A stretch of DNA of 63,951 nucleotides, filler included, from Kipferlia bialata (GCA_003568945.1; 7 parts of 6 records of this genome joined end to end with filler, not necessarily neighbours in it), one strand, 5' to 3'. Positions 14,756-63,951 are shown, counted from the whole stretch's first letter. Notes: a model not told the origin generated them from the sequence alone. A program made the numbers and translations.

Positions 14756-14931
14756 TAAGGTCAGGGGGGGGGGGGGGGGGAGGGGGGGGCAGAAAAAAAA
14801 ACCCCCTATGTGTACATTCTTATCTCACCTCCTAGGAGTTTCCAGCACTTCAAGGATCAGACACTCCATTATACATTAGTATACTGTGTCTGTCTCCATA
14901 TATAGATGTGTATCACTCTCCTTACCTCTAG

Positions 14932-17344
14932 GAGTTCCAGCACCTCAAGGATGAGACCTACCTAGACTACACAGGCAGTGCACTCTACCAGAGAGGACAG
15001 TTGAGGGTGAGTCTATATACATGATCTATATATATCTAGAGAGAGAGATTGAGAGAGTGTGTGTGTGTATGTATCTTGACTTCACAGGCAGTGCACTCTA
15101 CCAGAGGGGGCAGCTGAGGGTATGGGAATAGATATGTGTACATTGTGTTGAGAGAGAGATGGGCACTCTTCTCTCTCTCTCTCTCTATCTCCCTCCCCTC
15201 CCCTATATAGGTGTGTATCTTATGTATACAAATCACCCCAGGAGATGTTCACCCAGCTGGAGGGCAACCTTCTCTCTCTCTCCATCTCTCCATCTCCTCT
15301 TCCTCTCTCCCTATATCTATCACGCTATATGTATTATCTACTATGTCTCCCTTATCCCAGGAGATGTTCACCCAGCTCGAGGGCAACCTGTTCTGCAACG
15401 CACACTCAGGTACATATATCCATAGCATATATACATATATATATATTGCAGAGAACTCCCTGTATTATACACTGGGGACATACATTATATATATTCTTAC
15501 CCCCAGACTCGTCGTGTTCGCAATGATGTCTCTATATAAATAGGTATATATGGGTTGGTAGATACATTTGATCTTATCCTACGTTTGTTCTTTTCCTTGT
15601 GTGTCTAGTCTCACCCTCTAGACTCGTCCTGTTCCATGAGGACTGAGGCCGAGGTGACCAGTGTCAGAAGGACAATCATGGACTGGTTCAACTGTGGAGG
15701 TATGTATACACATTTATATATATCTATTTACAATATTGTGTATACATGTCCTCGTTCTAGTAGCCAATCATGGGCTGGTTCAACTGTGGGGGTATATGAT
15801 GTGTATAATATATACCATAATGTGTATACATTCTCTCTCTCTCTAAAGGACAATGGACTGGTTCAACTGTGGGGGTGAGTCAGATTCTACTTTCGGTCTC
15901 TCTCCCTCTCTCTACCCCCTTATTCTTCAGACGACTACACTGTCATCTTCACCGCTGGTACCACTGCCTCTCTCAAGATGGTGGGAGAGACATTCCCATG
16001 GTCCGAGGTATGTACAGTCTAATATGCAATAGAACTAGAAGTCACTAACCTTGCTATCCTCTTACCCCATCCCCCCCCCCATAGCCTACATAGTGTATAC
16101 ACGTATGTATATGTACATTATGCACCAATTATCCTGTCTTCTTCTTACCCCAGCACTCCCTGTACGGCTACTCCAGACACAACCACAACTCAGTGCTGGG
16201 CATGAGGGAGCTGGCAATGGCTAAGGTATGGGGTATTAGTATTTGTTCATATAGTATATGTGTATATATTAATGTATACATACTCAGTGCTGGGCATGAG
16301 AGAGCTGGCAATGGCCAAGGTATATGTGTGTGTATATATACATTGGTGTGTCTAGACGTGCAGACCACTTACCCCCCATGGCTCCTCCTTCCTGGCAGTA
16401 GGGTCACATATACCAAACAACATATGGTATATGTACGTATATATGTATAGAGAGTATATAGGCAGGTGTATGTACTCACTCCCAGGGCTCCTCCTTCCTG
16501 GCACTGTGTACCTGTATATATTCATTCTTATACAGATATTATTAACACAGTGTATTGTAGAGTATTTACTGTCTACTACTTACTTACCCCCCAGGGCTCC
16601 TCCTTCCTGGCCGCAGAGTGGGACCTACAGGACCCAGAGTACATACAGCAGTTCATGCCCAAGGAGGTATGCATACATTAGTTGTAGAATACATATATAT
16701 ATGTTAATCTTCGTTTCATGTATCCTCCCTCACTCCCAGTCTGAGGAGGAGTCCTCTGAAGAGCCAGTGGAGCAGTTCAACCCAGAGGTACAATGCGTAT
16801 ATGTATATGTATGATGGGAATATGTAGGTGGATATAGAATATATAGGTGGTATTCACTCACTCTAGGAGACCCCTGCCCCCCTCAATGATGAGACCGAGG
16901 AGGCCTTCCACCTGTTTGCATTCCCCGCAGAGTGCAACTTCAGTGGCATCAAGTGAGTTATAGTGTCTTCTGTATTCACTATTCATTATACACATATTAT
17001 ATATATACCATCTATACTACATATATTCTGTCACCGAGGTGTATGAGCACATATGTCCTCGCCCTCAGATACCCCCTTGACCTTGTGCATGCTCTATCCC
17101 TCTCTCTCTGTCTCTCTCTTCATGTGTATATAGAATAGTATGTGTCCTTATTCCCAGGTACCCCCTGGACCTAGTGCATGCTCTCAAGAGAGGTACACTC
17201 GGAGAGCACCTACTGTCTAGGTAGTGTACCAGAGTATATACATACAGCACAGTGGTAAATGTGGATATATGTAATATATCTACTCCGACACCAGAGCCGT
17301 TGAGACCTCTGCCATGCCCCCTGGGTACAATGTCTCTCTCTCTC

Positions 17345-17384
<40 letters not shown>

Positions 17385-18285
17385 TGTAGTATACGTTTCC
17401 TTACCCTCCAGAGCCGTTGAGACCTCTGCCATGCCCCCTGGGTACAAGAACAGGACCAACACATGGAGAGTGTGTGTGGACGCTGCTGCATATGCACCCA
17501 CTAACCCACTCGATCTACAGGTACGCAAATAGTATATATGGATTTCATATGTACTATACATATGTATGAATATTACTTCTTTTTCCACTGGATCTACATG
17601 TGACTACCCACTATATATAGAGAGAGGCGTGTATTCAGTAATAGTATGTACGTGTATATATCCCCTCACCCCAGGCCTTCCCCGCTGACTTTGTCACCAT
17701 GTCCTTCTACAAGCTGTTCGGCATCCCCACAGGCCTGGGGGCACTACTCGTCAGGTAGTCTAACGTACTCAGTCCCTATGTATATATGTTCTTTAACAAA
17801 TACATGGATTGATTACCCCCCCTCACCCAGGAAGGACGTGGCACTCTATCCACTCTACATTGTACTTATATGTACCTACATATGTTCCTATGTATTTATA
17901 TCTCCCCCTCACCCCAGGAAGGACGTGGCACACTACTCCACTGCAAGTAGTATATAATACTATAAATGTATAACCCCTTTGAATATATATACGTATACAC
18001 CCCCCCCCCTCACTCCCCAGGAAGGACGTGGCACCTTTCATGAACAAGACGTTCTTCGGAGGAGGTATTGTTAGTACATGCACAAATACACATATACCCT
18101 GTTTACGAGAGGAATACACACCATTATACTATTCTCTCATTGTCTATTGATTACCATTGTTGTCTATCTTCCCCCTAGATAATACATGCTTTGGACGAGT
18201 ATACACATATATGTTGTGTTTCAATAACACTTGGGGTGTCGTACAGCATTTGTCTCACCCCAAGGCACTGTCGTTGCCGTGTCCT

Positions 18286-18320
<35 letters not shown>

Positions 18321-18724
18321 ACATATCCCTTATATTCAATACCTTACACACAGGCACTGTGGTTGCTGTGTCCTGCGACTCCTCCTTCTGCAAGCTGAGG
18401 TGAGGCTAAATATATATATCGTGGTACGATATTACTCCTCTGTTTAATACTTCTCTGACCCCAGACCCATCTCCAACGAGAGGTTCGAGGACGGCACAAT
18501 CTCATTCCTCGACATCATTGGACTGAGGTGTGTATAGTACTCTAACATCGTATATATATATATATATATATACCAATATATATATACCTATATCAATACA
18601 TATATCTATCTATATACATGAATATATATATAAATCATTGGGCTGAGGTATGTTTGTTTGTTTTACAATACATGGCAGTCAACCAATCGCCGGCTACAAT
18701 ACCTTCAAGTCCCTTGGAAAGCAG

Positions 18725-18760
<36 letters not shown>

Positions 18761-20748
18761 TCTCTCTATCTATATATATCTAGTATTTTTGTCTCGTTTT
18801 AACGCTGGCTTCAACGTGTTTGAGTCTCTCTCTCTTTCTCTCGCTATTTCTTTCTCTCTCTCTACATGATGATATCTAATATCAGTGCTGGCTTCAATGT
18901 GTTCAAGTCCCTTGGCAAGCAGGCCATCACAGACCATGTCTGGACACTCACCAGATACCTCTACTTGAGGGTCAGCGCCCTCAAGCACAAGTGAGTATAG
19001 TTGTGGGTATACATATATACATACACTATTACATATTACTACTACTACGTGATCACGTATATATCTCAGAGTCAGTGCCCTCAAGCACAAGTGTACTCCC
19101 CACACAATATGTTGATATAGAGGACTATCTAGTGTAAATATTGTACTCCATATATCTAGTATTATCTTTCTTACCCCCAGGAATGGCCGTCCCCTCCTAG
19201 AGATATATGGCAACCACGAGCACGGAGACCCAAAGAGACAGGTACGTATTCAAGTCTTAGTTGTAGATTGCTGAGCACGGAGAGAAGTATTTATCCTACG
19301 CCATTGGAATGTACCACTTTTCATGTCTCACTCCAGGGCGGAATCCTCTCCTTCAATGTCCTGTCGCCCAAGGGGCAGTACGTGCCATTCAAGATTGGTA
19401 CGGTGTTACTTTACTTGTAGTTCTTGACATTTATATTAAGTGTATATATTACTATGTACATTTCGTGTTTCTTCCTTACCACCCAGTGATGGAGGCTGCC
19501 AAGACCTCCAACCTCATCATCTCTCCCCTGTCAGTGATTACTCCAACCATACTATGTTCCTCCATAAATGTATTGATATATCCATATACACTAACCCCCA
19601 GTGATGGAGGCTGCCAAGACCTCCAACATCATCTCCTATCCCCTGCCAGTGATTACTCCAATCATACTATGTTCCTCTATATATATGTGTGTGTATGAAT
19701 ATATATACTAGTATTCTTACCCCCAAGTGATGGAGGCTGCCAAGTCCTCCAACCTTCTGGAAATGCATATACAATGATGCATAACTCATGTGTGTAATCA
19801 NNNNNNNNNNNNNNNNNNNNNNNNNNNNNNNNNNNNNNNNNNNNNNNNNNNNNNNNNNNNNNNNNNNNNNNNNNNNNNNNNNNCTTACCCCCATCCTTAC
19901 CCCCAGTGATGGAGGCTGCCAAGGCCTCCAACCTTCTGCTCAGGGCAGGGGCACACTGCAACCCAGGGGCCGCTTTTGGGTACGGGTAGTGAATAGATAG
20001 TATAGTTTGGGTAGTGGATATACAATTAATGGTATCGTATTATATAGTATCACCGTATACTTCCGGTGGGTTCTAGTGGACGTTCAATTTATGATAGACC
20101 ACTCTATACTCTTCACCTTTCCATCCCGATATACCATTAACATGAGTAACTGTACCCATATATATGCATGTGCACCATGTCATTATATCCTTCCTCTCAC
20201 CCCAGCTACCTGACGATCGAGGAGGAGGACGTCCAGACAATTCTGCAGGTATACAGTAGTGTATATAGTATATTATATATATATATATATATATTATTAA
20301 CTATTCCCTCCGTATGTTATTATGTACTAGTGTACCATGTATGCAAGTACTGTGTCTCCCTAGCTGTACTATGTATACCTTGTGCATATAATATATATAC
20401 CTTACTCCAGGAGCGTGAGTCCTGCCACGCTGGTGACGGTATGTGGGAGGGCAAGCCCCTGGGTAGCTGCAGGGCATCCCTGGGGTACCCTACTACAGTG
20501 ACAGATGGTATGTGCTAATACTGATGAATGGAAGTCACGATTATATATGTTCACCCCAGTCGACAGGCTGACCACCTTTCCCAATACCTATGTGCTATTA
20601 TATCCATATGTATATTCATATAAATATATGTGTGTGTGTGTGTATGTATATGTGTTTGTGTGCACATACTCTCCTCACCCCAGTCGACAGCCTAACCACC
20701 TTCCTCAAGGCCACCTACACAGACAGAGACATGCCCAAGGATATGTAG
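14932..20748 (+). CDS. Molybdenum-cofactor-sulfurase-like (ABA3/MOCOS NifS-type, class V PLP) protein, about 21 exons, 5'-incomplete, no MOSC domain
   Basis: Exon peptides [88 protein letters not shown] (PLP Lys), [33 protein letters not shown]; stop TAG at 20746-20748. Confidence 0.9.
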
Positions 20749-21466: not shown

Positions 21467-24400
21467 CTACACAATTGTCTGCTGCACACCCATATGTGAA
21501 ACAGAGGGTACATACACTGCGGCCTTCCTCTCTGGGTATACCAGCAGCATCAGAGACACATACTCCATAGTGTTCATGCAGATGTTGGAGAGGGACTTGA
21601 CCTGCGGATAAGAGGTGTACATACATATACAAAGATAGAGAGAGAGAGAGAGATACACACTCCATGGTGTTAATACATATGGTGGAGAGGGACTTGACCA
21701 ATGGTGGCATGAGAGATTAATGGAGAGAGAAAGGAGAGACACGCATATACTAATTACTTACACTCCTGATGCAACAACTATACACAAGTACACACATATA
21801 TATGAATATAAATGATTAGGTATACATATACATACCTCCTGACTGGGCACCCACCACTCCATCCTGATCAGGACGTACAATTATATAAACACATATACAT
21901 ATGTATATATATATATACACATATATGTATACCTCCTGTGATGGTACCCACCACTCCATCCTGATTAGGAAGTATATCAGCTTGGACCCGCCATATGTCA
22001 GGATGAACACGGGTAGAGCATACACCTTGGAGACCTAAGTATTAGGCCTAGTAGAGACAATGGTACTAAATATGATATATAAATATATACATTCATATAT
22101 AGGATACAAGATATATATATAATGATATATACATAGGTCAGGATGAGCACGGGGAGGGCATACATCCTGGAGACCTGGGTTAGAATTGCAAAGAGGGAGA
22201 GAGAGACAGACGCACAGAATACATGCATCTTGGAGTCATGACTGTATCATTGTTGAATACAATGGTATACAGACCAACATGTCTCTACCTTCTGTCTCTT
22301 GTGAGATGCCTCCTCTGTATCACTTCTAGTGAGCATATATACTAATGTATATACATACCAATATATATGTATAGATATATATATATACTGATCCTTACCT
22401 TCTGTCTCCTGTGCGATGTTTCGTCTGTGTCACTCCTGGTGGTGGAGAGGACAATCTTGCTCACACGCTTGGTGGATCGCCTGAGAAATGAGTAAATATT
22501 TACCAACCTTGATTCGCTATATAAATCATTCTGCTGTATGTACTACAGTACTATACATGCATATACATTGACATCAATGTATATATACCCAATCATGACC
22601 ATGACTAGCAGGATGACAGAGACGCATATAGAAATATACAAGAATACAGATATATTTATATATATACGTAAATATACAAAGAATATGTATATTACTATAT
22701 ACCTCCTCATTGCCACCTATGGTTATCAGTATGACAGACATTTACATACATTATGTATCTATATGTATATACTAATATATATATACATATGTATGTATAT
22801 ATATATATATATATATATCTGTACCTTCTCATATATAACTGTACCTTCTCATTGCCACCATAACCACTAGGATGACAGACAGATGCATGATCTGCAGAGT
22901 GCCCAGGATTTGGTACAGGGCAGACACCTGGTTCATATGGGTATCCTAAGGGTAAAATAGAATACTATATATATACATAGATATATATATATGTGTATAT
23001 ATGGAGAAGGAGATTAGTAACAAAGCGGGAGAGAGAGAGAGATTGAGTTGCACAGTATATGTGAGGCAGAGCTGCAGAGAGAGATGTTAATATTTATATG
23101 TGTTGTATAAGTGTAAGCAACCACATACCAGTGCCTCCTGTGTATCTGTCTCATGTTCTTTGACCCATGTGAAGTCCCACACAAAAAGGGTCACAGTGAC
23201 CACAGCCAGGACGGCACAGACAGCTGTACTGATATCAGTATCAGATGCACATATGAATATATATCTGTGTGTATATGAGAATGATGAATCTATACAGACT
23301 ACCACAGCCAGGATAGCACAGACGGCAGTGCCGATGTGAGTTAAGAAACCAAAAACTAATCATATAAATATATGAGAATATAGAGATACAGTACTACAGC
23401 CAATAGGGCACAGACAGCAGTGCTTGAATGAGCGTATTACTTGGAGTATATCTATATTCCACCTCCATCATATACTACAGATACTGATACTGATACATCA
23501 TGAAGTATCATTATTTCACAGATAGAAACTTGACCATGTGGGTCATACCTTGTTCGTGTTATGATATATAATACAATATATTATATATTTATATTATACA
23601 TATTATATATACTTGACCATGTGGGACATGCCTTGTCCGTGTGATGCGTCTGAAGGTACGTGTGCTCCTGAGCCCACGGAACACCTGGGGGTTAGAGTTA
23701 ACGATATATGTCTATGATATCTGATGAATATGTGTAAATGTTTTTACATGTGGCAGAGATACTATGTGGGGAGTGCAGTGACACAAGAAACATTTACATG
23801 TATACATTAGACATATATTGTAGTGGATGCATATGAATAGCACTATCTACCTCGGGCAGAGTGGCATTGTCATGAGCACTGTGACTTCAAATACTATATA
23901 GAATACAGTAAAGACTATAAAGACTATATATACTGCATATACTACAACAATATAAAGATTACATTTACATNNNNNNNNNNNNNNNNNNNNNNNNNNNNNN
24001 NNNNNNNNNNNNNNNNNNNNNNNNNNNNNNNNNNNNNNNNNAGATCTGTACCTGTATAAATATCAGGCAGAGTGGCATTGTCATGAGCACTGTGACACCC
24101 GAGGTCAGGAATGTGAAGGTGGGATCCCCTGAGTGTAAGTATATAGAAACATATACAAATAGAGAGAGAGAGAGAGAGACAGTGGCACCCGAAGTCAGGA
24201 AGGTGAAGGCGGGGTCACCTTAGTGTAAGGGTATGTATAGAGAGAGAGAGAGAGAGATAAGAATCATCTGTTTCGAGACATACATTGCTTGAAACATACC
24301 GAAGAATCCGTACACCTCACTTGGCCAAAAGAAGTACGCTGCCACGATGACACCCGTGAATGTACTGGGGGTTAGAGGGTGTAGTGAATGAAATGAAATC

Positions 24401-24740
24401 ATTGAGAAGTGAGAGGGTGGGGGTAGATATATACAAAAATTGGCTATTGATATATTCCTCATGTATCGGATACCACAAGTGATGTATACAGAGAGACTTT
24501 GTGTTATACTTCACAATACGTATAAATATATATATACGTATACATATATATATACATATACCTCATTGCACATGCCACTGTGATGTATCGGATACTATAT
24601 GTGCTATCCTATATATCATACTTCCCTCTATGCACATATAGATATATATATATATATATATATGCTTATACTTATATATACCTCATTGCACATGCCACTG
24701 TGATGTACTGGAGACCGGCCTTGGACCAGTGGGTGGTGCT
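21467..24740 (-). CDS. Multipass membrane protein of unknown family (possibly 7TM-like), 5'-incomplete
   Basis: Successive hydrophobic exons: STFTGVIVAAYFFWP, FTFLTSGVTVLMTMPLCL, STAVCAVLAVVTVTLFVWDF, LYQILGTLQIMHLSVILVVMVAMR, VYALPVFILTYGGSKLIYFLI, MEYVSLMLLVYP; stop at 21467. Confidence 0.65.
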
Positions 24741-24908
24741 GGGGTTAGGCTTAGTATAATATATATATATATACTTATACGTATATATATACTTATACTT
24801 ATATATATATATAGAGAGAGAGAGAGAGAAGCGGGCCTTGGACCAGTGGGTGGTGCTAAGGATAAGCTCAGTACAATATACTTATATATATATATATTAT
24901 ATATATAA

Positions 24909-24944
<36 letters not shown>

Positions 24945-25118
24945 GGGCCTTGGACCAGTGGGTGCTGGGGTCAGGATCAATGTATACTAAACTAACAGTA
25001 TAATGCAAATGAAGTATAACACACATGCATAAATATATATTAATATACAGAGAGAGGGATACGTTGGTCTTGGACCAGTGCGTCATGCTAGGGTGAGTGT
25101 GAATGCATAGTAATACAT

Positions 25119-25329: not shown

Positions 25330-26674
25330 CCTTCACTGGCCCTGGCACATCTGTCAGGTCAGCTGGGTCAGGGTTCTCGGCGATGAGGGCATCGGACCAG
25401 TAGTTGGCAGAGATCTTATCCTAGTGGTGAGCTGCATATATACATGATATCCTTGCATAGATATGAATATGTATATATATATATATACATAGAAAGAGTG
25501 ATGGTAAAATGAGGGCTTGTCCTATGTAATAAACGATAGACCCATGACTACATATGTGTATCCCCTGTCAGTCTATATATCTATATATGTCCATAAATAC
25601 CTTGGGGTCCGATGTGAAGTTGAGCATGTCGATGAAGTCGATGCTATATGATATAGTACACTCTCTCTCTATATATAGTAGATATACATCCAATACATAT
25701 TCATTCTGTATATACGCATATACGTATCTACCTTGGGGTCCGATGTGAAGTTGAGCATGTCGATTCTCATACAGAGTACACATTATTCACAATATATATC
25801 ACTCTACCTATCTATCTATACACATCTATCTCTCTATCCAGAAAGAGACTATATAGTACCTTGGGGTCCGATGTGAAGTTGAGCATGTCGATGAAGTCTA
25901 TATGTATATAGTGCATATACACCTTTACAGGTGTATATATATATATATATATATACTGTACTTCTATGTATATATATACCTTTGGGTCCGATGTGAAGTT
26001 GAGCATGTCGATGAAGTCGATGCTGGTGGCCTTGGCAACCTAGAGTGAGACCAAATGTATATGAGAAGAGAAAAAGAGTGACTCATTCATATAGGGCATG
26101 TCAAATGTGTATGAATACATTCAATTAGTGACATACAATGCATATCACCAACACATACGTACCTGTATCGTTGTGAATGCCCCATCCTCCTCCTCCACCA
26201 ATGAATGTATATATATATATACCATCCACTTGTACTTGTTATTGAGAATACCACAAAAAGTTGGTATATATACAATCATTCAAGCATCCATACACTGTGA
26301 ACATATCTACCTGTATCTTTGTGAATGCCCCGTCCTCACCGTTCATGCTATATATCTACCTTGATACTATACTATTAAAGTAAAATTGCGTTATAGTATC
26401 TATTCATCATACCTGTGTATACGCAATGTGTATAGCCTAACAGTGAATACCTGTATCTTTGTGAATGCCCCGTCCTCATCGTTCAAGCTATTAATCTGTC
26501 ATCATATAGTACTATAGTATATACATATGTATATATAGTATCTACTTAATATACCTGTATCTTCGTGAGTGCCCCGTCCTCATCGTTCATGGACCCAGAG
26601 GCATCGAGGGAGATGCAGACCATTAAGTTAGACAGATCAGTATAAGTAAGATGTACATACACATATGTCTAGTG

Positions 26675-26726
<52 letters not shown>

Positions 26727-28726: not shown

Positions 28727-28772
<46 letters not shown>

Positions 28773-28811
28773 GGGCCAGGCACTGCTCGGCATCGAAGAT
28801 CAACTGAGTGT

Positions 28812-50118: not shown

Positions 50119-53100
50119 TGTGACGACAGTGCCACGTACCTGATGTAAGTATATGAATGAACATAGCAATACAGTATGTATATGTCGAGTGAGAGATGGG
50201 GAGATAGACTCTATCTCAGATAGAGAGAACTTGAGCAAGTGGAAAGTATGAAGAGCACGGATATATACGCACCATAATAGCTGCGCTCTGGGCTAATGTC
50301 TCTGCCTCCCCCATGTCATGGGTGTTGAGCAGTAAGAATGTACAGTATGTACACAAATATTACGCACTACCTATATTACATATATATATACAGACTCACC
50401 ATGATTGCTGCTGAGTGTGCGACTGTCTCTGCCTCCCCCATGTCATGGGTGTTGAATATATCTATAGTGTACTATATAGTAATATACATAGTACATAGTA
50501 TACTAATGTATATTATATACACATACCATTATTGCAGCAGAATGGGCCAGTGTCTCTGCCTCCCCCATATCGTGTGTGTTGAGCAGCAGGGTGCTGTCTG
50601 TGTTGAGTATAGCACTCCACACCGATCTCTTGGTCAAAGGGTCAAGACCGGTGGTGGGTTCGTCTGTCAGAAGGACACCATGGGTACTAGTACCTGGTAT
50701 TGAAATATACCTATTAATGACATCACATATACATTAACATATATACATACAATGTAAGGAGAGGAGGACACCATGGGAACTGGTGCCTGGTATTAATATA
50801 TATATGTAAGTATACATAGAGCTACTTGAATAATGGATGATATCCCATGAGTAGGACACCATGGGAACTGGTGCCTGGTATTAATACATGTATATCATTA
50901 TATATAGAGATACTTGTATAGTGGGCTCGTCAGTCAGAAGGACACCATGGGTACTGGTACCTGGTATGAGTATATATATATGAGAATGTGTCAGAGCTAC
51001 TTGGATGATGGATGGTGGGCTCATCAGTGAGTAGTACCCCGTTGCGACTGGTACCTAATGGGTTAGTATCAGTAGCAAAGATAATGAGTACGAGGATCAT
51101 TACATGAACCAAGTTCACTGTATAAAAATGTATGGTAGTTATACCTAGAATAGCCATGCAGAGAGACAGCCTCCGCCTCATCCCACCGGAGAGCTCCCCA
51201 GACCGCTTGTATCTGTGTGTAGTGAGCATGGTTAAGGAGAGCAGACCCTCAACAACCTCTGTTAATGTCACACCAGGGCTAGTCTGCAGACCCCTGATCC
51301 TAGCTATCGTGTAGAGATGCTGCTCTACAGTGAGGAAGGGCCAGACACAGTCATGTTGGGGCATGATGCTGATGTGTTGCCATGCATCCCTTGGGTGCTG
51401 GGTGAGGTCTGTGCCGGTGCTGAGGAGGGCAGTGCCAGCAAGGGCAGACAGGTGGCCTATAAGTAAGTATACTTAGTATAAACATGTAACTATACTAGTA
51501 TACTTAATAGTTCGTTTAGTATAGTATAGTATACGTGCTGAGGAGGGCAGCGCCAGCATGGGCAGAGAGGTGGCCTGGGTGTTAGTGTATTGTAATTACT
51601 ACCAGAGTAGCTCAGTATAGTGTAGTGTTGTGAATACAATAGTGCTGTACTATAACAGCCCAATACGTGGGTGCCTGCATGGGCAGAGAGGTGCCCTATA
51701 AGCGAGATATGATACAGGGTGTAGGTGCCCTGGGATTTGGTATCACAATAGAAACTAGAGGAGATGCACAAATATCAAAGAGTGAGAACAAGAACGAGAC
51801 CATGTAAAACCGAGACAGAAAGAGACTGACTGTCTCTGACATCTTACCTGTAACGACGTTGGCCAGGGTAGTCTTGCCTGGAGTTAGTGAGCTCAGACGA
51901 GTGTCACACATGAGATAGATAGATGGAGTCAGCATGCGCACAGAGAGTGTCATTATCATTAACAAATAATGCAACGAACATATTGGATATATAGTCCTCA
52001 AGCCGCTATCGGTTACGAAAGAGAGAGGGAGAGAAGATGCCATACCTGAACCAGAAGCCCCAAGGAGAGCCACCGTCTCCTTATCTCTGACACCAAGGTT
52101 GACTCCATTAAGGGCCCTGGTGCCCTTGGGGTATTGGTACTCTATACCCTTTACATCAAGAGCCAGACGCTCCTCATGACAACAAGGCTCTAGAACCTCC
52201 CCTTGTTGCATCTCTCTCTCTCTCCCCTTGGTGACCTTAACTCTAGGAAGCAGATAGAACGACAACCCAAGACAGACGGCAGAGGCGAAGAGAGACACTA
52301 GGTTCATGCTTAGGGTGTCGGAGAGCATCTTAGTGGCATCAGTGGTAGTAAAGGCCAGTCTCATATCAATAATGAAGGCGAGTATGGGTGCAACGCCCAG
52401 GGGTGGGATGGCCTCAATGTAGAACCCGATAGAAAAGAATATAAGTGTAAAGACGCTGGTGGCGATAGACGCCGCCTTCACACTGTCTGCAACGGTGCCA
52501 ACGAGGAAACTGAAGGAGACGACAGCAGCAACACCGACACCAAACGTGACTGCAAACATCGTGAGTGAGTCGGAGCCGTGCTCAAAGCCTGGTAGCCCCA
52601 GCGTGTATCCTGCGGCTATTGCAACCACAGCAGCCACTAGTGCGACACATACCCACCATAGTAGGGACACCACGTGAGAGAGTGTCCGCCCCACCCCGTG
52701 GTAGGATAGGAGTGGGGCCTGCTCTGCGGCGGATATGATGTGGATAGCTGGGAAGGGCACTAGCAGAAGCAGGGCCAGGGGCACAATGAAGACTGTCACT
52801 ACCTTCATTAGGCTGTAACTGCCTGTCTCAAGGGTTGGGTCGAGCATGTAAGGGTAGGACGACACTGACACGGAGAGAGAGAAGTCCATCCCGGTGCCTG
52901 GGTACTTGGTATTAACCAAGGAGCGCAGCCAGGCTTCATCAAGTCTTGCAACTAAGTCACTCGCTATACCTGATAGCGTTGGTCTAGGTGACGATGGTAG
53001 TCTGAGCAACACCTCACTGTCCTTCCCATCCTCTACCACCATTCCGGTTGGTATACGAACACGGCTGCTAAAAGAAGGAGGGTTGGTGGTACGACCCGTC

Positions 53101-56100
53101 TTTGTGTTGAAAGAGGTGATACCAGCAGTGTTCTGCATATGTACAGTGTGGTGCCTTGTGTTGTAGTTGGTATCTGACAGGAACCATGGAAGGTATGAGT
53201 GCAGAGTATAGCTCAGGGCTGGGCGAGTCTCACTCACCGTGTAGCCAAAGAAGTCTACAACTCCTATGGGTCCCATATCGGCGAGGAACACTGCGCTTCC
53301 AGACCCGGCGTTCTCTGCTGAATACTGGAGTCCTGAGTCGTATATGTTCTGGTAGACGCTGTTCTCATGGAACTCAGAGAGGTACTCTTCCATGTCACAC
53401 TCAATCAGAGGCGTCCTAAGGGCGGTGTGGATATACTCCGTGTCTGCCGTGGTGTCACAGGAGTCTCTCTGCCACTCAACAGAGTCTCTCTTGCAGGTAT
53501 CCTCACATGCACTGATGTCAAAGCCGGAAGAGGCTGTAGTATCATGGTACTCATGATAGGGCTCCCAATACGTAGAGCACTCCTCTACACACACAAAGAC
53601 GTACTCATCGCATGTCGAGTCTGTGGTGGTAGTGTAGAGGGGTCTCATGTAGGGTAGGACTCCAGGCACCACATCGCCATGTGGGTCAGGGTATACACCG
53701 GAGTCTATCCCCGCATAGAATGCACCGAGGTGGGCTGACAGCCAGGTAGGGTCCACCTCCATACTCTCAACCTCTGTACCCTCCCCCACCTGCCCATTGG
53801 CTAGGAGGCTATCAAGGTCAGGGTGATTGGCGCTGTTCTTGACCTGAAGCGTAGCAGGACCAGCATTAGTGTACCCAAACATCCCACTCAACGTCCCTCC
53901 TGATGGATAGGTCTTGACTGCTGGTGACTGCACGTCTAATCCCTCGTACGCAGCCTCTGCCAGACACACCCCATCTGCATACCCGTCTAGACCCTCTGCC
54001 CAGCACAACTCAGGCCTGTCAGATCTACAGGCTGTCATCATGTCCTCTGTTGTGTAGGGAGGGGATGGGTAGAGCATAGCACAGCATATCTCACAGGCCG
54101 CACTAGCCGCTTCCCATGTCTCATCATACGCAGTCTGGAGGGTGTTCTGGAACGAAGGCTCCAGAGTGCCTACTAAGAGACTCGCTGCCAGCACTACAAT
54201 CCCAGACATCACCGCAAACATCACTACAGTGAGGGTAATGCCAACTGCTACCCTTGCAGGTTCGGGCACTGTTACACCGCTAGCCACGAGGACACTTGTG
54301 GCCTTGAGTTGTATGAGAGTCCAGAACTTCTGACGCAGAGAGGGGTGCTGGTCTGTCTCCATGACTGTATCCACTGGCACTGATGGGCCTACACTCTCAC
54401 TAGCCTTGGTCAATGGGGTCAATCCCACTTGTTGAGGCCCAGTAGATGCAGAAGGGACAGAAGAGAGCTCCTCCTGCACACCACCTACCACACTCAGGAA
54501 GTACTCAGTGAAAGAGGGTCTGTCTAGGACAAAGTCTGTGACAGAGTCATGTGTCGACAAGTACTGCGCCAGGGCAGGCATGAACCCCTGGCTCTCTATA
54601 CCTCCCACTCCTGCGCCTCCCTTGGTAAAGGAGAACCGGACTGTATTAGGCGATGACAGGTGTAGCTGGCACTCCACCCCGTACTGTCTGGCCAGTAGAC
54701 CCAGTTCTGACTCCAGTAGTGGACGTGGGTCACTAACACCACCGGTACTCTCACACCAGAGAGTGGCGGTGATGCCAGCTAGAGAGTGCCGCAACTCTAG
54801 AGGGGTGCCCTCTGCCAGAACCCTACCCTTCTCCACCACGGCTACAGTGTCAGCCAGTTTCTCAACCAGTGTCATGTCGTGACTAGTGACTAACACACAG
54901 CTCTCAGGGCAGCGCAGGGAGGCAATGTACCTCCAGATTAGTAAACATATTATAGACAGAAATTACGTTATAGGTATTAAACATTATAGATATATTTGTT
55001 TAATATATATGTACCTCCAGATGACCCGCTTGGTGACTGGGTCCAGCCCTGTGGTGGGCTCATCAAGGACAACAAGGGGTGGCCTGACGGGTTAAACATA
55101 TTCTAATAGATGAACATGAATACGAGAGAGTGTCAGTATGTAGTATATACCCATTGGCATTGAATGATACCTGCCAGCTGTAGCCATCAAGAGAGAGAGC
55201 CGGCGTATCATGCCACCGGATAGTTGGGAGGCCTTCTTGTTGGAGGCATCTGCTAGGTCCACCGCAGTGAGGAGCCGATCGATCTCGGCCTCAGTGGCAG
55301 CCCGTCTCTCCTTGCGAGATAGACTATCTCCCTTGCCCCTGAAGGCTCTGATGGCTAGGGCAACGCGTAGGTTCTGACGGCAGGTCAGATCGAGCCACAC
55401 GTTTGTAGAGTGTTGAGGGCAGAGACCGACGCGTTTCTTCAGGAACCGTACGGAGTACGGTGAACGGAGATCGTACCCAGCGACCTGTACCTGGGTGTCA
55501 CCAGTGGTGCTAGGGTCTGGAGCGACTTCTCCCGATATCACAGAAGAGAGGGTACTCTTTCCAGCCCCATTAGAACCAACCAGGAATGTGACAGTGTCTG
55601 GCTGGACGGTTATGTCGACCCCCCTCAACGCTCTGACCTCCTTCTGAGAGGCCCCTCGGCTGGTCTTGTATGTGACAGCTAGGGACTTGATATCTACAGG
55701 GGGTCCAGCCTGACTAGACCTTGCCAACCAGAACTGGGGTGTGAAGAGAAACATGAGCGGCAGCCCCCGGTATCCATCACCCTTACGCACATGTGCAATG
55801 TACACACCAATAGCACCCAACACAAGATACTGCCATAGAGCAGCAACAAGTAGGGTACCCACTGACGCCACAGAATAGAGACAGGTCTCCTCTCCAGAGA
55901 CCTGGTAAGAGCAGTGCTTGGATGTGTAACGCGCAGCATCCCAGAAATCACTCAGGGAGAGGGTGGTGGAGCAGTTTAGGACGTCCTCCACGCATGCTCT
56001 GGTTAGTATGGAGTACAGAGACTCTAGGAGACTGCAAGTCATGTACACGGGTGATGTAAACTCCATGACAGCCCTCACGACAGGTGGGGAGATGGTTGGG

Positions 56101-58340
56101 TCGAAGATCGAGTTGTCGAAGATGATGTAATACACGAGAACGAGGCCGAAAGAGCCAAACGTGAGGCCAAAGGCTACTGCAAAGGACGTCTGGGGGTTGT
56201 TGAACAAAGCAACAACCACAAGACTGAATCCCACACAGAAGAGGGACGGGAAGAGGAATACTAGGTACTGGGCCCAAAAGGTGGCTGCAACGGAATCAAA
56301 GGGGGATATACCGACAAGGTGAGCAGCGAGTACATCTAGAAGTGCAGTGACGGCCCCAAAGACTGTGAGGATGCCAAACCAGTTCAGCCAGTACTGAACC
56401 TCAGTCACTCCTGGGGTGAGTTGTGCATGTATATATCCACAATAAGAGATATCCATAGCTACAATATTTACAACACTCTCAATACCCTTACCTAGCCGTC
56501 TGATAGCTGGAAGGTTGGCATGCTTATCCTCGGCCAGAAACATGACATACCACAGGCTCTGGCAACGTGAGAAGAAGCAGAGACAATGGAAAGAATGCCT
56601 CATTCGTTGTTTATACGAGGCTAGTAGGCTATGTCAGACTACATTTGTATGAATACAAATTGAAATTGCAAATGATATACGTATATATGTATATACCGGT
56701 GCCACCATAGAAATGACTATCGTGATCTAAATAGAGGACATAGTATCTGGCATACGAGTGGTTAATGGGAATGCATAAGTGTATACGAATATTTATACGT
56801 AGGTTCATGTTAGTACACACATATATACCTGTGCCACCATGGCTATGACTATCGTGATCATGATAGAGGACACTATGCCATTGGCACCGCCAGAGGGGTT
56901 GGGCAGGGCTGCGACCTAAGTGTCAGCACAGTATTTGGAATATATACCATGTATATGTGTATGTATCTGTGAAAACTACAATAGAATATGGGTTCGGCAG
57001 GGCTGCTACCTAAATGTCAGTGCCATACTACTATAGTATGATACTGATATAGTATGATACTATATCTTCATTAAGCAATACATCTGTATAATACATTATG
57101 AATACAATGAACACAATGGTATAAGGGTTGGGTCCTAGTATTCATTACAAAAGTACATACACTACAATATAGCGTAACAGTGCTGTTAGCGATATACAGT
57201 AGATGTCTCCACTGTCCCTAGAAGGCCTATCTTAACGTACCTCTACGTTGAGGTCGACAGGGGTACCGGTGATGAGAGAAGCTAGCTGGGTATGAGAGAC
57301 GGAGAGGGGGGGAGAGAGAGGCATAGAGACAGAGGCAGAGATACTACTAAGGAGAGACACATATACCTGTCCGTCTATCAATGCCTGTAGCTGCAGGGCC
57401 ACCCCAGAGAACTCATCGGGCTTCCCCACTTCCTGAGAATGAAACAGGGACATGGAGAGTATATACATGTGAGTACATATGGGGAGAAGGTATTAATACA
57501 TTATTCTGCCAGAGTGTCAGTGTATCCAGACAATGTACACATATACATATATGTATATATTCAAGAGTACCTGTGCCAGGGGGTCTGTCCCTATTGGGTC
57601 ATCGGTGTACATGATGTCTAGCATGGTCCTGTTCAGCTGGGTATGAGTATATTGTAGGACGAGACAGAGATCTACAATGAATAACAAATATGAAACAAAT
57701 CTGAATAGGCTTATGACATAGGCAATGTGCTTGTCATCATGTACATGTATGTGGTATGATGGTGCCATGGGGACACTGGTATCTATGAAATCTAAAAGGA
57801 ACTCATATACATAAATATATACCAATATGAATGAATATATATATATATATCAGTCCATGTATACCTGTATGTGGTAGGATGGTGCCATTGGGACAGCGGC
57901 ATCTATATGTACTATACTACACGGTGTATACATATATATATATATCTATATCATACACCTGCATGTGGTATGAGGCTATTCATATATTTACATATTCATT
58001 AACATATATACTTCCGTATATACCTGGATATGATAGGATGGTGTCATTGGGACAGCCTCATCGAAGCCGTCAAAGACAACACTGAGGGCACTGATAGGAG
58101 ATAGAGAGAGAGAGAGAAGCAATACTGAGGGCACTGATATCAGAGAGAGAGACAGACAGAGAGAGAGAACACAACAGTGAGGAGCAGTGATATCAGGTAT
58201 AGAAAGAGACGATATACAATGTGGCAATGTATATATCTGATACACTACCTTGGTATGAATGGCGACTCCTCCAGCCACACTACATAGAATACCAATACTA
58301 TAGTGACGTTTACACATTAGTACTCTATACTAAGATATAT

Positions 58341-58376
<36 letters not shown>

Positions 58377-59433
58377 CGGTATGAATGGCGCCTCCTCCAG
58401 TGCCAGCTGCTCTGTGGTGACTCCGTATCTCGCTAGGTTGGTGGGAGTAGGGTCTAAGTCCCCACTCTACATGTGAGATGCCCCAAACAATTGACCTCAA
58501 GGAACGGATCGATGGATATGTCGGGAATACACATATATACCTTGAATAGCCCCAGTGTCAAAGAGAAAGATAGTGGGTAGTTGATATATGTATATACACT
58601 ATCTATACACATATCCACCTTGAATAGTCCAAGTGCCACGTGGGTATCCAGCTCAGCCACCGTGGTATACCTGGGAGGGTGAGTGGAGATACAAGAGATA
58701 GTACGTAAATATATATATATATATATGTGTGTGTGTGTATATATACATACACCGAATAACTGGGAGGGTGAGAGGAGATATATACTATATAAGTTAGTAC
58801 GAATACAAAGAGAGACAGCTCACTTTACATCAGTGTCACTTACCCTCTAACTGTCTCACTGCCCCACCCCAGGCCCTCTCTTATACCCTCCATGACTGCA
58901 CTTGTACCAGCGTTGATGGGGGCATACATCATCCACTATATATATATATATATACATATTAGAAGTAAGTTGTCACATACCCTCTAAGTGCCTCAGCTTC
59001 CCATCCTAATCCTTCTCGTATACCCTCCACCACTGCACTTGTACCAGTGTTGATGGGTGCGTACATCATACTGACACACCCATGGTCAGGGTCAGTATCG
59101 GCATCGACCTAACGAGTTAGTGCAACACGACTAACACTAATCATACACACACACAGACACAATACATACCTTGCATGTACGAATCTACATGGGGTTGTAT
59201 GTACACCATACTATATATATATGAGTATACCTTGCACATGCCAAGTGTATCCATTCCTGTGGGCGTGTATGTAGTGACCATGAACAGGGGAATGTATGCA
59301 TTATATATGCCATACACCATGTATATATGTAGTCAATGGGTGTATACCTTACATATTCCCATGGTGTCCATGGTTATTGGGCTGTATGTGGTGACCATGA
59401 ACAGGGGGAGGTACAGGAACACAGTCGAAGTGA
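49705..59433 (-). CDS. Full-size ABCA-subfamily transporter (two TMD/ECD-NBD halves), 5'-incomplete
   Basis: NBD1: GSNGAGKST, VGLCPQH, LSGGMIRRLS, VVLDEPTTGLDP. NBD2: GASGSG|KTT (split by an intron), MPQHD, LSGGMRRRLS, TDEPTTGLD. Regulatory motifs PSFTEYFL and PRLEDAFL; stop at 49705. Confidence 0.93.
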
Positions 59434-59877
59434 CTGATGTCAGAGAGAGAGAGAGAGAGAGATAGAGTGGGAGGAAGGTACAGGAACACTGTCGAAGTAA
59501 CTGGGGTCAGCGGGAGAGAGTCGCACACATATGGGGAAAGTAGTAGAGAGAGGAATGTATAGGAACACAGTGGCAGTGACTGGGGTCACAGAAAGAGACA
59601 CACACACACATATTGGGAGAGGAAGAGAGAGAGGAATGTATAGGAACACACTGGCAGTGATTGGAGTCAGAGCCTGAGAGAGAGGATTAGGGGGAGAGAA
59701 GGAAGGTTGCAGACGCAGGGGAGGGAGAGTGTGTATGTGGGGGGGGGGGGGGGGGGGGGGGGGGAGGGGAGGAAAAANNNNNNNNNNNNNNNNNNNNNNN
59801 NNNNNNNNNNNNNNNNNNNNNTTAATTAATTAANNNNNNNNNNNNNNNNNNNNNNNNNNNNNNNNNNNNNNNNNNNN

Positions 59878-59939: not shown

Positions 59940-60961
59940 GGAACTTTGACCATCCATATTGAACAGGTCATCCCTATGAGTAAAATGTATACATATACCG
60001 GCATGCAGAAAGGAATGGTAACTAAGAACACACAATGAACAGGTCCCAACGGAAAAGAGATATTCAGAGTCACTAGGAGTAATGAAACAGGGCAGATACT
60101 AATATAGGCATAGAGAGGAAGGGGGGGGGGGATAATGGATAAGATGGGGGACACTTAGAAGGGGAGGGGGGGTGTGCACACGTACTTGTTGCTGAATCTG
60201 ATGATGTTGTCGGATGCATACATAAACAGGCATATAGACAATGAACATTCAGTGAGCAGGCCCCAATGGATAAGAGGTATTCAGAGTGACACGTACTTGT
60301 TGCTGAATCTGATGATGTTGTCGGGTGCGTTGGGGTTGTTGGCTGTGAGCATACGGGTCACCTCCTCATCAAGCTCCTTCTCAGACAGGGGGACCTAGAC
60401 ATGAGGCAGAGAGGGAAGAAAGAGCACGTAAAAAGCACCTGGTGCAAATATATTATACTGAGATGTATTCATCGCTAAGTCAGTGCCCAACGTATCAGAC
60501 AGAGGATACTCCAGGCACAATAGACTATGAGACTATTGGTATACTCGCCAGTACTAAGTCTAGTTCTCTGCCCATAACAATCCATAGACTAGTAAACCAA
60601 AACCACCCCCACCATCCATTACCACCCCCATACACACCCTCCTCTGGTATAGACACCCTATCCATGCCTAGACACTACCTGGTTCTTGGGGATGATCACA
60701 TTGGCCTGGGTGGTCTCAGGGGTGTCCTTGTCGGCTCTGCGGCGTGCAGGCCGCCTAGCAGCCTTGCCCTGAGGTTTCTTCTCCTATTGTGAGCATAATA
60801 GAGTGCACAACCACGCCAAAACAGCAGGAACAACGAAAGCGTGTCACAGTTCACCCATTCTTAGGCACTCACTGTGCTCAAATCCCCCCCTAGAACCATA
60901 AAATACACTAAGCATGTGAAAGAGTTACCGATTCCAGCTATACCTGGGGAACTGGAGCCAT
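59940..60961 (-). CDS. DNAI1: Outer-arm dynein intermediate chain 1 (IC78/DNAI1), 5' part only
   Basis: IIPKNQ|VPLSEKELDEEVTRMLTANNPNAPDNIIRFSNK matches the recalled DNAI1 N-terminal motif (ELxEExTRxLTANNPxAPxNIxR). The first exon (MAPVPQ, ATG 60961) is tentative. Confidence 0.85.
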
Positions 60962-61099
60962 GATCGACCACTGGCTTGCTGAAGAACTCAAACTTCAGCC
61001 TTCTAAGGAATCAAAAAGACTAAAGGGTGTAGACGCAGTTTCTTGACAAAAGGGTGCAGAGTACTGGTAAAGGCCGACTGTCAGCTTCACGAACTCAAG
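60962..61099. promoter_or_regulatory. Putative compact bidirectional promoter between DNAI1 and Atg18
   Basis: Only about 140 nt separate the two inferred divergent ATGs. Confidence 0.5.
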
Positions 61100-63838
61100 A
61101 TGCAGATTGAGAAGAACGAGAAGGGAGGAGGTGAGACAGTTAGTTAATATGTATATTGCCAGATTTGAGGTAGTTGTAGAAGGCAGAGAAGGGAGGTTCT
61201 TAAACAGAACGAGTGTAATGTTGTTTTGTCGTCTCTAGAGCTCAATGTACTGTATTTGGGTTATATTGCTGGTATTATGGGTGAGCAGGGCCATTTTTTA
61301 CACTTACTTGTCGTGTTAGGCGGTGTAAGTAGTGTTTCAGTTCATATATGAGATGACACTGATTTGGTTGATACTGGTACAATACTTGTTCAGACAGACT
61401 GGGACTAGGTCAGAGATCTTCCATTCGATTGTCTGTTGTCTTACTCGTAAGTTTTGTCTGCTCTTGTGTCTTCTAATGCAATGTATACGTACATATATCA
61501 CCCCACTTGTCTCTCTCTCCCTCACCTGTCAGACCTCCTCTTCTGTGGGTTCAACCAGGACAATGGGTGCATTGCAGTCGGAACCAAGGTGTGTGGTCAT
61601 ATAGCACATGGTACCATGACTTCCTTCTCCGGTTGTGTTGAGAGGGAGAGTCGGGCAAGTGTCAATATGCTATATATCACCTGTCATCTACTCGCACCCG
61701 GGTCTCCCATGACAAATATTAATATACCATCTCATATGTATACTGACACCCAGGTTGGGTTCCGCATCTTCAACGCCGACCCCTTTGTGCGTATGTTCAG
61801 CAGAGACATTGCAGGACACAAGGGTATGTACATTTGATATGTCACACGCTTATCTATAGGTGTCTCATGGTTAAAGAGTACTTATCCTCAGTCGACATCC
61901 GCTCCAGACAAGGCTCTGGAATTAATATATATCCTATTTTCATTCATCTTAGCTCTATTCAGTACTTATCCTCAGGCGGTATCCGTTCCGTTGAGATGCT
62001 GTTCCGCACCTCCATCCTGGCCCTGGTCGGGTCATCTGTCTCACCCCCATACTCCCCACACAAGGTATTATATGATTGTATGGATATCTCTCATGTAGAA
62101 GGGTACTATCTGTGTCACCCCCATACTCCCCACACAAGGTATGTAATGGGTAGGGGCATACTCTATGTATATCCCTCTCTTCATATACATATATATATAT
62201 TTCTGTTTACTAATACTGACCCCAGGTTGTCATCTGGGATGACCACAACAGGCGCATCCTGGGAGAGATCAACTTCAGGTATGGAGTCCCATATGTGTGT
62301 ATTTCAGGGACATATATATATGTATGAGTAGTGCTAGTGTGTGTTTTCATATTATGGTGTTACTATAGATGGTTTTTCCTTCTGCTGCCCCTCACCCCCA
62401 GGTCCATGGTCCGTGCTGTCAAGCTGAGAAAGGACAGGTATGTGGATGAAAGAGACACATAGCATATTTATTGCTACTCGTAGATAGATATATGTATATA
62501 TACAGTCTCTCACCCCAGGATCGTGGTTGCTCTCAAGCAGAGGGTGTACGTGTACTCCCTGGCAGACTTCTCCTTGATCGACCAGGTTTATATACATATA
62601 TATATATTGACAATAGTACATATACACACATATATATATATATATATTAATAGTACTGGTATTAGTGCATAAGTGTACTCCCTGGCAGACTTCTCCCTCA
62701 TTGACCAGGTATAGATGCAAATATAGATGCATATATATATGTATATATATACATACTAGAAGTATATGACTTTGTGTATATGTGTACCCCCTGGCAGACT
62801 TCTCCCTCCTTGACCAGGTATATATATCCATATTATTGAATTCTTATATACTAATACTGGAGGATACGTGTGTGGTATATTTAGGGTTGTTAATGTGTTT
62901 ATAGAATACTCCTAGGTATAGCACTCACCCCCCAGATTGAGACCCTTGACAATGAGCTGGGTCTCCTTGCCCTGTGTCCATCCACATCCACGGCATCGGT
63001 CATGGCATGCCCAGGTATATTATATATATATGTATTGTATGTATATATATATATACATATGGGTGTATATACATGTGTGTATATATACATACCTATCCAC
63101 ATCCACGGCATCGGTCATGGCATGTCCAGGTGTATGGTATATACTATATACTATATGTATTATATATATACTAAATGGTACTCCCTCTATATATATATAG
63201 GATGTGCCCATTCACATCCACTGCATCGGTCATGGCATGCCCAGGTGTATATACGTTATAGAGGCATCTATATATTTATAGTTTATACTCTCATTCTCTG
63301 TCCCCCCTCACCATCAGGCATCAAGGCTGGTCAGCTCCGTATCCAGACCATATATATTTATATATGAGTATATATAGATCTATCCCTCACCCCTAGGCAT
63401 CAAGGCCGGCCAGCTCCGTATCCAGACATCCTCCTCCACCCCTCTCTTCATAGAGTGCCACCAGACTGCACTCCAGGTATATAGATATGTATATATACAT
63501 ATATGTATATGTACTCTATACTCCCCTTCTTTTGCACCCTATCTTCATAGAGTGCCACCAGACTGCACTCCAGGTATTTTCACTCTGAGTTGAATACCAT
63601 TATCATTGAGGAATACATGTGTTCATATTTGTGTATCCATATTTGTGGTAACCCTCACCTCCAGTCCATCTCCGTCACTCTGGATGGATCCATGGTGGCC
63701 ACAGCAAGTGTCAAGGGTATGTGTATGTGTATAGTATTCTCATTGTCTGTGTCTCATATACTTGTATATATATATATATATATATAAGTATATGTGGATA
63801 TATGGATGGATCCATGGTGGCCACAGCCAGTGTCAAGG
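61100..63838 (+). CDS. ATG18: PROPPIN (Atg18/WIPI3-4/Hsv2-like) WD40 protein, 3'-incomplete
   Basis: MQIEKNEKGG|DLLFCGFNQDNGCIAVGT, GFRIFNADPF, VEMLFRTSILALVG, KVVIWDD, VRAVKLRKDRIVV, IETLDNELGL, IECHQTAL, DGSMVATASVKG. The F/LRRG motif lies beyond the window. Confidence 0.9.
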
Positions 63839-63951
63839 GTAGGTGAAGGATATGTGCTTGTATATACAAGTATGTACTCTTCTAATGGAACCCTCTGTGG
63901 GGTCTCTCTCTCCCCCCCCCCCCCCCCCCCCTCCCCCCCCCCCCCCCTCCC

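Follow-up and report, generated by a model that had tools for sequence, protein, structure and literature searches.

Half-exon echoes in the introns of Kipferlia bialata carry a protein-level selection signature

Introduction

In amphioxus, repeats known as "mirages" have been described at Adh3, the globin genes BflGb6 and BflGb9, troponin C and PGBD5 (PMC3087553, PMC3902484). In the sections of these reports considered here, a mirage is a tandem copy of an intron-exon boundary together with part of the exon, occurring at either boundary; many copies keep their AG or GT, splicing is undisturbed, and unequal crossing-over was proposed. Here we analyze a 63,951-nucleotide (nt) stretch of DNA, hereafter the window, from Kipferlia bialata (GCA_003568945.1), in which more than half of the modelled exons are accompanied by partial copies in their flanking introns with a similar unit length. 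We call these copies echoes. The free-living fornicate K. bialata has 124,912 GT-AG introns, and the considered part of its genome paper does not contain "duplicat", "heterozyg" or "ploid" as words (PMC5874029).

The original prediction, made from the DNA alone, offered the echoes as a candidate for an undescribed system. As anatomy they are not new: their layout is that of the amphioxus-type mirage, as far as the considered sections of PMC3087553 describe it. We found no report of Kipferlia echoes, or of a codon-level signature in mirages, in the open-access literature.

Results

A small gene finder followed by hand curation gave 10 genes with 122 exons, every frame open; the echo analysis covers the window's seven segments. 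Each exon was aligned locally to the introns on either side (score of at least 28), which returned 140 matches: 70 upstream and anchored at the exon's 5' end, 64 downstream and anchored at its 3' end, and 6 internal. None of the 140 was an upstream 3' copy, a downstream 5' copy or a copy of a whole exon. All 134 anchored matches lie head-to-tail on the expected side, in all seven segments, so the polarity claimed originally (5' parts upstream, 3' parts downstream) holds and placement on random sides was not seen. They belong to 67 of the 122 exons (55%), or 62 of 107 among exons of at most 130 nt. Chance matches at this score are rare, at 0.4% for random exon/intron pairs, 3/258 for inverted introns and 10/1678 for non-adjacent introns of the same gene. 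The two copies originally given for Vps41, at 3618 and 3704, are present as well, at 3618-3635 and 3702-3720 (Table 1). Half-exon echoes are thus confirmed as a real and pervasive feature.

Echoes are 14-89 nt long, with a median body of 32-38 nt and a median spacer of about 70 nt. The repeat unit spans 43-187 nt, mostly 80-130 nt (one outlier spans a gap), and unit lengths are random modulo 3. The core enclosed by the outermost GT and AG has a median of 114 nt, compared with 130 nt in echo-free introns; because this is an ordinary intron length, the outer splice sites look like former intron ends. The original prediction also had the upstream copies end in (AT)n or (CT)n. A dinucleotide run follows the break in 39/69 5' echoes and precedes it in 22/65 3' echoes, against a background of 19-28%; a microsatellite at the break is therefore a tendency that is clear on the 5' side only. 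5' and 3' echoes co-occur (odds ratio 2.6, p = 0.02) and tile the exon in 7/19 cases, against 3.8 expected (p = 0.05), both weak signals that are confounded by gene and exon length. The idea of a broken exon with an intact copy inserted into it also drew weak support (p about 0.05) and was set aside.

Differences between echoes and their exons concentrate at silent sites. Mismatches at codon positions 1, 2 and 3 number 111/1539, 62/1549 and 286/1515; 271 differences are synonymous and 188 non-synonymous (including 5 stops). This agrees with the synonymous bias noticed at the outset, and the rarity of indels noticed with it is seen in 9 gaps over 4603 columns, a lower bound given that the aligner penalises gaps. 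Four-fold sites differ at 179/777 and zero-fold sites at 164/3037. The pooled ratio of non-synonymous to synonymous rates (dN/dS) of echo versus exon is 0.22 (0.17-0.28, bootstrap over exons), with 0.18 (0.13-0.26) in the 18 externally verified exons, 0.245 in the other 49, and 0.23 without the ABCA gene. For neutral intronic duplicates a value of 1 had been expected. That expectation fails: simulated neutral sister duplicates run through the same pipeline give 0.47-0.54, because the working exon also changes at silent sites. The pooled value lies below even this range, and the neutral null of about 0.5 is rejected. Simulated functional divergence of 0.15-0.22 before death, followed by decay of 0.02-0.04, returns 0.20-0.23. 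We rejected base composition or context as the cause (a trinucleotide-matched odds ratio is still 6.3), and likewise pseudo-replication (one echo per family side leaves a 0-fold/4-fold ratio of 0.23, 0.20-0.27).

The same signature is found among the echoes themselves. Dead lineages predict a dN/dS of 1, whereas the ratio is 0.28 (0.19-0.40) for echo-private changes and 0.27 (0.21-0.36) between echoes. Replacements of amino acids are conservative, with 49% at a BLOSUM score above 0 against 30% expected. Third-position divergence among echoes is overdispersed, from 0 to 0.64 (p = 4e-5); in the ABCA echo at 51054-51013 the silent sites are nearly saturated and 10/12 residues are kept. K. bialata strongly avoids the codons GAA, AAA and CAA, and G>A changes occur in echoes at 2/160 third positions of Glu, Lys and Gln codons, against 18/163 four-fold G and 28/807 zero-fold G (p = 0.0006 for the deficit, distinct sites). 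From the rarity of G>A at these avoided codons, decay since death can be put near 3%. Where the working exon itself has a rare A-ending Glu, Lys or Gln codon, the echo has the preferred G at 6/9 distinct sites. The low dN/dS, the echo-echo differences, the codon-bias compliance and the valid alternative branch points indicate that the copies diverged while functional and died recently. The proposal that echoes are halves of once-functional exons from diverged copies is supported in this respect.

Echoes also retain splice signals. As described originally, ungapped upstream copies keep AG in 53/61 cases and a branch-point-like motif in 51/61 (real acceptors, 100/109), and downstream copies keep GT in 57/59. 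Real-site scores are reached by 70% of echo acceptors, against 6% of intronic AGs, and echo donors show no significant weakening relative to real donors (p = 0.10). Between an echo's branch pentamer and that of its own exon, position 3 differs in 33/53 pairs, T2 in 3 and A4 in 3. The splice-side flank is about 50% identical (ungapped) to the flank of the real exon, above unrelated introns (p = 4e-5 and 1e-7), a similarity that fits about 40% substitution plus indels. Divergence of the flank shows no correlation with that of the exon part (rho -0.08 and -0.06), and even echoes that match the exon over 33-40 nt without a difference have altered flanks; the echo at 17295-17330, for example, matches its exon at 36/36 positions, yet its flank is unlike. 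Within a gene, acceptor tails are more alike than across genes (p = 4e-5), with the BRO1-like gene (42565-47000) as the clearest case; this hints at local copying of intron ends.

Many echoes occur in arrays. Breakpoints within a family lie at most 3 nt apart in 50/73 pairs (random 20%) and in 21/31 multi-copy sides. Pairs that share a breakpoint have homologous DNA on the junction side (score 25, against 12 for unrelated echoes; p = 7e-10) and still differ from each other with a dN/dS of 0.28 (0.21-0.43). A single junction combined with different working splice sites and silent variants suggests unequal crossover of an echo with another allele's exon. Of the mechanisms proposed originally, unequal crossover fits best, as array copies mostly have one junction in common while their differences bear the mark of protein selection. 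In 17 families the nearest echo resembles the exon more than the farthest does, against 7 with the reverse order and 7 ties (p = 0.006). At repeat-adjacent breaks, 11/27 overlap the repeat by at least 2 nt, against 7-15% by chance, which is weak support for junction microhomology. In the array at 34879..35430 the branch pentamers vary among CTCAC, CTAAC and CTTAC.

To set the assembly beside read data, we compared read contigs over 37390-38960 (1.57 kb); such contigs hide minor isoforms and rare alleles. A DNA run (X1) holds 0.92 of 1022 sampled words from 37400-47050, a share that is weak on junctions alone since 6-11% of words cross an echo break. It gives a 751-nt contig without differences and leaves 38130-38780 uncovered. 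Its depth climbs to as much as 3489, versus 448, at the echo next to the 962-N gap, and a loose end runs from the spacer into a further copy. Given this roughly 8-fold depth and the loose end, 36423..37426 is a collapsed head-to-tail array of about 8 near-identical 3' echoes. A second run (X2), which has no RNA record and was treated as RNA because its contig proved spliced, yields one 1438-nt contig with six GT..AG joints at modelled exon ends. Joints 38298/38691 and 38733/38903 skip four scored echoes (38373, 38495, 38583 and 38811) in two introns, and no other letters occur across the seven exon pieces. The first piece falls on an echo identical to the exon, where the donor used is indistinguishable. 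Two annotated proteins (ABCA and KIPB_004829) also use full exons only. An RNA-level recombination or splicing route, which the original prediction had kept as an alternative, is thus not borne out by this one RNA contig, which uses full exons only.

Three exons of the window are 100% identical to named K. bialata proteins (exonuclease KIPB_004832, the ABCA transporter and KIPB_004829). The seven segments are joined by six 12-nt stop-codon linkers between 44-N runs (at 12590, 25234, 30404, 34556, 47198 and 59821); these join separate contigs, so genes on either side of a linker need not be linked. Our ABCA model equals the named protein P0003 at 1823/1823 shared residues, the membrane-protein model holds KIPB_004829 (P0010) identically, and 6 Ulp1-gene introns agree with the RNA joints. 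A Pfam Peptidase_C48 match supports the Ulp1 label and a RING domain match the Vps8/Vps41-type label. The Moco sulfurase, vWA, BRO1, DNAI1 and Atg18 labels are presumptive, taken from the original prediction or from motifs; single exons of these genes gave no Pfam match. Main counts refer to the 122-exon set, and the microsatellite, flank and breakpoint statistics to a 121-exon version with the same headline numbers. The echoes are collected in Table 1.

Table 1. Echoes in the modelled genes of the window (positions counted from the first letter of the window).
Feature	Position	Strand	Echoes
Vps8/Vps41-type gene	839..3720	+	four 3' echoes: 839-861, 3321-3336, 3618-3635, 3702-3720
Moco-sulfurase-like gene (presumptive label)	exons 14932-20748; echoes 14840..20584	+	20 echoes; 5' examples: 14840-14862, 15242-15275, 17295-17330, 19487, 19602, 19728; 3' examples: 15072-15119, 15765, 15846, 16282-16319
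Membrane-protein gene	21649..25083	-	5' echoes: 25083, 24967, 24855, 24216, 23421, 23329, 22174, 21698; 3' echoes: 24595, 22747, 22331, 21877
vWA-like gene (presumptive label)	25601..30139	-	24 echoes
Array ahead of full exon 26620-26555	26724..27240	-	five 5' echoes, one common junction into (CT)n
Unknown gene	31939..32466	-	two 3' echoes: 32466-32413, 31962-31939
Array of Ulp1-gene exon 35501-35583	34879..35430	+	six 5' echoes, five with a common junction
Gap and echo of exon 36357-36405	36423..37426	+	962-N gap and 3' echo 37389-37426; unit about 69 nt
Echoes skipped by RNA joints	38373..38835	+	38373-38401 (3'), 38495-38517 and 38583-38602 (5'), 38811-38835 (3')
Further Ulp1-gene echoes	39029..42185	+	5' array 40291/40400/40501; 3' pairs 39029/39133, 41519/41652
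BRO1-like gene (presumptive label)	43713..46722	+	13 echoes; 45325-45357 and 46246-46285 identical to the exon part
ABCA gene (P0003)	50119..59660	-	20 echoes
DNAI1-like gene (presumptive label)	60186..60217	-	one 3' echo
Atg18-like gene (presumptive label)	62108..63838	+	8 echoes

Three places in these genes stand out. The sole full-length copy of exon 26620-26555 (-) reads TG at its acceptor, its five upstream echoes keep AG, and an open in-frame extension of 48 nt reaches an upstream AG. In 23632-23530 (-), a GC donor at 23631 follows from the annotated protein. The downstream echo carries a canonical GT in its place, together with two silent changes and a well-conserved intron start. At 39673-39927 a duplication runs across a whole intron (exon end, intron, next exon start) and creates an AG...GT-bounded hybrid of about 105 nt that the gene model skips.

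Echo load tracks short exons and AT-rich, microsatellite-rich introns. Two genes with long exons and few introns are echo-free, one at 6800-12400 (-), which we take to be eIF4G-like, and the exonuclease gene at 48400-49400 (+). Self-BLAST found no local repeats in the unmodelled long-exon genes at 6.3-14.8 kb and 47.6-49.9 kb. A degenerate intergenic direct repeat at 32952-33294 (period about 145 nt, 72% over 206 columns) has no relation to an exon as far as modelled.

Discussion

The explanation that we favor, and consider probable while far from certain, is that echoes are junction duplications joined at microsatellites and then grown or refreshed by unequal exchange with the working exons of deeply diverged alleles. 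An echo would be born when a break or template switch in an exon is resolved by joining to intron DNA about 70 nt back, with one splice site copied, probably through end-joining at microsatellite microhomology. Any copy that had both splice sites would be taken up by splicing and then lost, leaving 5' halves upstream and 3' halves downstream. As duplication across one splice site and the loss of whole-exon copies account for the polarity, it is by itself no evidence of a special mechanism. Echoes would stay silent if the spliceosome, by exon definition or scanning, uses whichever pair of sites lies closest to the full exon. Allelic introns (about 40% diverged) would differ far more than exons, so that a homologue's exon could pair almost equally well with an echo. 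A crossover there would bring in a splice site and exon letters from a functional allele, keep the old junction, and add or remove copies. Allelic diversity (about 0.15-0.22 at silent sites) would then make up most of the echo-exon difference, with decay adding about 0.02-0.04. The mechanism requires sex or another inter-allelic exchange as well as very high diversity, and we infer both.

The considered parts of one published paper report that fornicates lost Rad51A and have two Dmc1 paralogues, that metamonads lack non-homologous end joining, and, in its supplement, that K. bialata has entries for Spo11, Dmc1 and PolQ (polymerase theta) and none for Ku70 (PMC8516963). Dmc1 stabilises mismatched joints, according to the section considered of PMC6719624. 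A bolder proposal, which we put forward as tentative and somewhat doubtful, is that K. bialata, with no Rad51A or Ku and with Dmc1 and polymerase theta, continually rebuilds its exons via out-of-register exchange of hyperdiverged alleles; half-exons would alternate between silent and working states, and one genome would hold a dated archive of the alleles of its population.

Several observations weigh against unequal exchange between alleles. A single copy makes up 56/87 family sides, where refreshment and independent birth are indistinguishable. In the most stringent test of echo lineages, the non-basal copies in families of at least three hold 5 synonymous and 7 non-synonymous changes, a dN/dS of 0.41 with an interval that extends past 1 (0.08-1.16). 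Branch pentamers were picked by best fit, which favors agreement at T2 and A4. The excess of silent differences that unequal exchange predicts near the splice end is weak (1.29 vs 0.97, p = 0.05, non-independent). The required silent diversity (about 0.2) is extreme. No second allele appeared in the three exons covered (about 720 bp), which gave one contig at flat depth, contigs being prone to drop rare variants. Three protein searches of limited sensitivity (exonuclease, ABCA and KIPB_004829) returned one K. bialata sequence each, and a metagenome scan with an ABCA exon returned 4 unrelated loci at 29-33% identity and no relative. No donor allele or paralogue with echo variants was thus found in these low-powered contig, protein and metagenome searches. 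The strain may be haploid or inbred; a present-day diverged diploid of the Meselson type is unsupported in the three exons covered.

Other explanations share parts of this evidence. Each echo could be an independent scar of one-sided, homologue-templated repair (invasion at the exon, copying into the intron, joining of the polymerase theta type) that is never recycled. Such scars would have the same polarity, low dN/dS and functional foreign flanks, and they suit the K. bialata repair gene set, the microhomology at repeat-adjacent breaks and the co-occurrence and occasional tiling of 5' and 3' echoes, the last two being weak and confounded as noted. One-sided repair, which was among the routes proposed originally, may account for births; as the sole origin it is unlikely, as the shared breakpoints with homologous junction-side DNA in 21/31 multi-copy sides point to one ancestral junction. 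Tandem duplication between sister chromatids, as in classical mirages, needs no alleles and fits the age gradient, the homogeneous collapsed array and the non-basal counts, provided that decay of the copies is slow and that mutation is several times faster in the working exon and its splice flanks. Equal rates, however, give 0.47-0.54, flank divergence is independent of exon-part divergence, and echoes identical over 33-40 nt have altered flanks; we know of no process that would protect intronic copies, and judge this origin quite unlikely. Donation by paralogues or homeologues from a former hybrid or polyploid state that has since disappeared would explain why no allele is seen today, why some echoes (ABCA 51054) are nearly saturated at silent sites and why third-position divergence is overdispersed. 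Arrays with three or more valid variants argue against it, as does the small decay, which implies that donors existed recently, and no close paralogue was found for the three genes searched with limited sensitivity; we regard lost homeologues as improbable.

Ongoing translation of the echoes, whether by minor alternative splicing, joining at the RNA level or programmed DNA rearrangement, would account directly for the low decay, the near full-strength splice sites and the codon-bias compliance. The reduced K. bialata spliceosome, for which the considered section of PMC6679479 reports that no snRNA (small nuclear RNA) candidates were found, counts on the same side. But 5' echoes lack a donor, 3' echoes lack an acceptor, 5 stops and 9 gaps were counted, AG is lost in 8/61, the RNA contig shows no other letters in seven exon pieces, the two annotated proteins consist of full exons only, and the DNA contigs show no such joints. 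Unit lengths random modulo 3 also count against translation and led us to reject frame-preserving use of echoes. Continued translation is accordingly hard to credit. A selected cassette reservoir, in which echoes convert the working exon often enough to come under purifying selection, was another of the original options; it would explain the low dN in the copies, and recycling products are expected under unequal exchange. We argue against it on rates: for selection to see mutations in echoes, exchange would have to run far above the mutation rate, and the 23% divergence at four-fold sites would then vanish unless it were supplied by allelic diversity, which leads back to the explanation that we favor. 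The affected genes are, moreover, housekeeping genes, and we consider a selected reservoir very unlikely. An assembly artefact, with haplotypes stitched at microsatellites, is conceivable in a gapped draft of short-read type, where the read data compared are contigs that leave 38130-38780 uncovered. Stitched alleles would yield whole exons, however, and not half-exons attached to intron sequence; with a median of 32-38 nt, echo bodies fall well below read length, independent contigs show a spacer-to-echo junction and the roughly 8-fold depth at one array, and the polarity extends to 134/134 anchored matches in all seven segments. We give this explanation hardly any weight.

If exchange between alleles does shape the echoes, intron DNA that is never translated would record selection on alleles lost from the sequenced strain, and an echo-versus-exon dN/dS below 0.5 would allow inter-allelic recombination and hyperdiversity to be tested from one genome in protists without observed sex. 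It would also supply a testable mechanism for the unexplained mirage repeats, and would mean that a reduced metamonad spliceosome ignores near full-strength sites and prefers those bounding a complete exon. Echo bodies total about 4.6 kb against about 27 kb of gap-free modelled intron DNA, which would make the echo process a main driver of intron growth and splice-site turnover here. If exons are indeed continually rebuilt, sex-like recombination and a silent diversity of about 20% would have their first evidence in this free-living fornicate, and the crowding of mirages into highly heterozygous marine species would have a general explanation.

Among known systems, one-sided invasion with polymerase theta templated insertion would give the same junctions through homology-primed copying and microhomology joining. 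It is known from single repair scars, unlike the shared-junction arrays found here at half of the exons. The vlsE, VSG and chicken IgV pseudogene systems likewise keep non-expressed partial copies under coding constraint near an expressed copy. They diversify surface or immune molecules with dedicated machinery, whereas the Kipferlia genes are housekeeping genes with mostly silent changes, and no echo letters pointing to directed conversion occur in the one RNA contig (contig-level data only). Tandem exon duplication with mutually exclusive splicing, and intron gain by tandem duplication, also involve local duplication of splice sites within genes. Kipferlia differs in having no whole-exon copy with both sites (0/140) and no new intron shown.

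The 37-bp variable-number tandem repeat of human F7 intron 7 is similar in that it spans an exon-intron border and carries functional downstream pseudo-donors that stay silent, the most upstream being chosen; in the part of PMC1557585 considered, it is a single locus with identical pseudo-sites, on the donor side only, and carries no allelic or protein-level signature. Amphioxus mirages come closest. Kipferlia echoes share with them the head-to-tail duplication across one boundary, its occurrence at both boundaries (70 acceptor-side, 64 donor-side), the unit length, the AG or GT kept in many copies, and regular splicing that is undisturbed in one RNA contig and two proteins. What they lack is whole-unit homogeneity (81-100% in BflGb6), which is found only in the collapsed array and partly on the junction side. 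As far as the considered sections describe them, mirages occupy few loci with whole units 81-100% identical, whereas in Kipferlia 55% of the modelled exons are affected, intron flanks are about 40% diverged with valid branch points, the host is a unicellular metamonad, and the copies show a dN/dS of 0.22 with codon-bias compliance, a signature absent from those sections. What appears to be new is the evidence that copies now silent in introns worked until recently in diverged alleles; new in Kipferlia are the protein-level signature, the diverged intron flanks, the density and the protist host.

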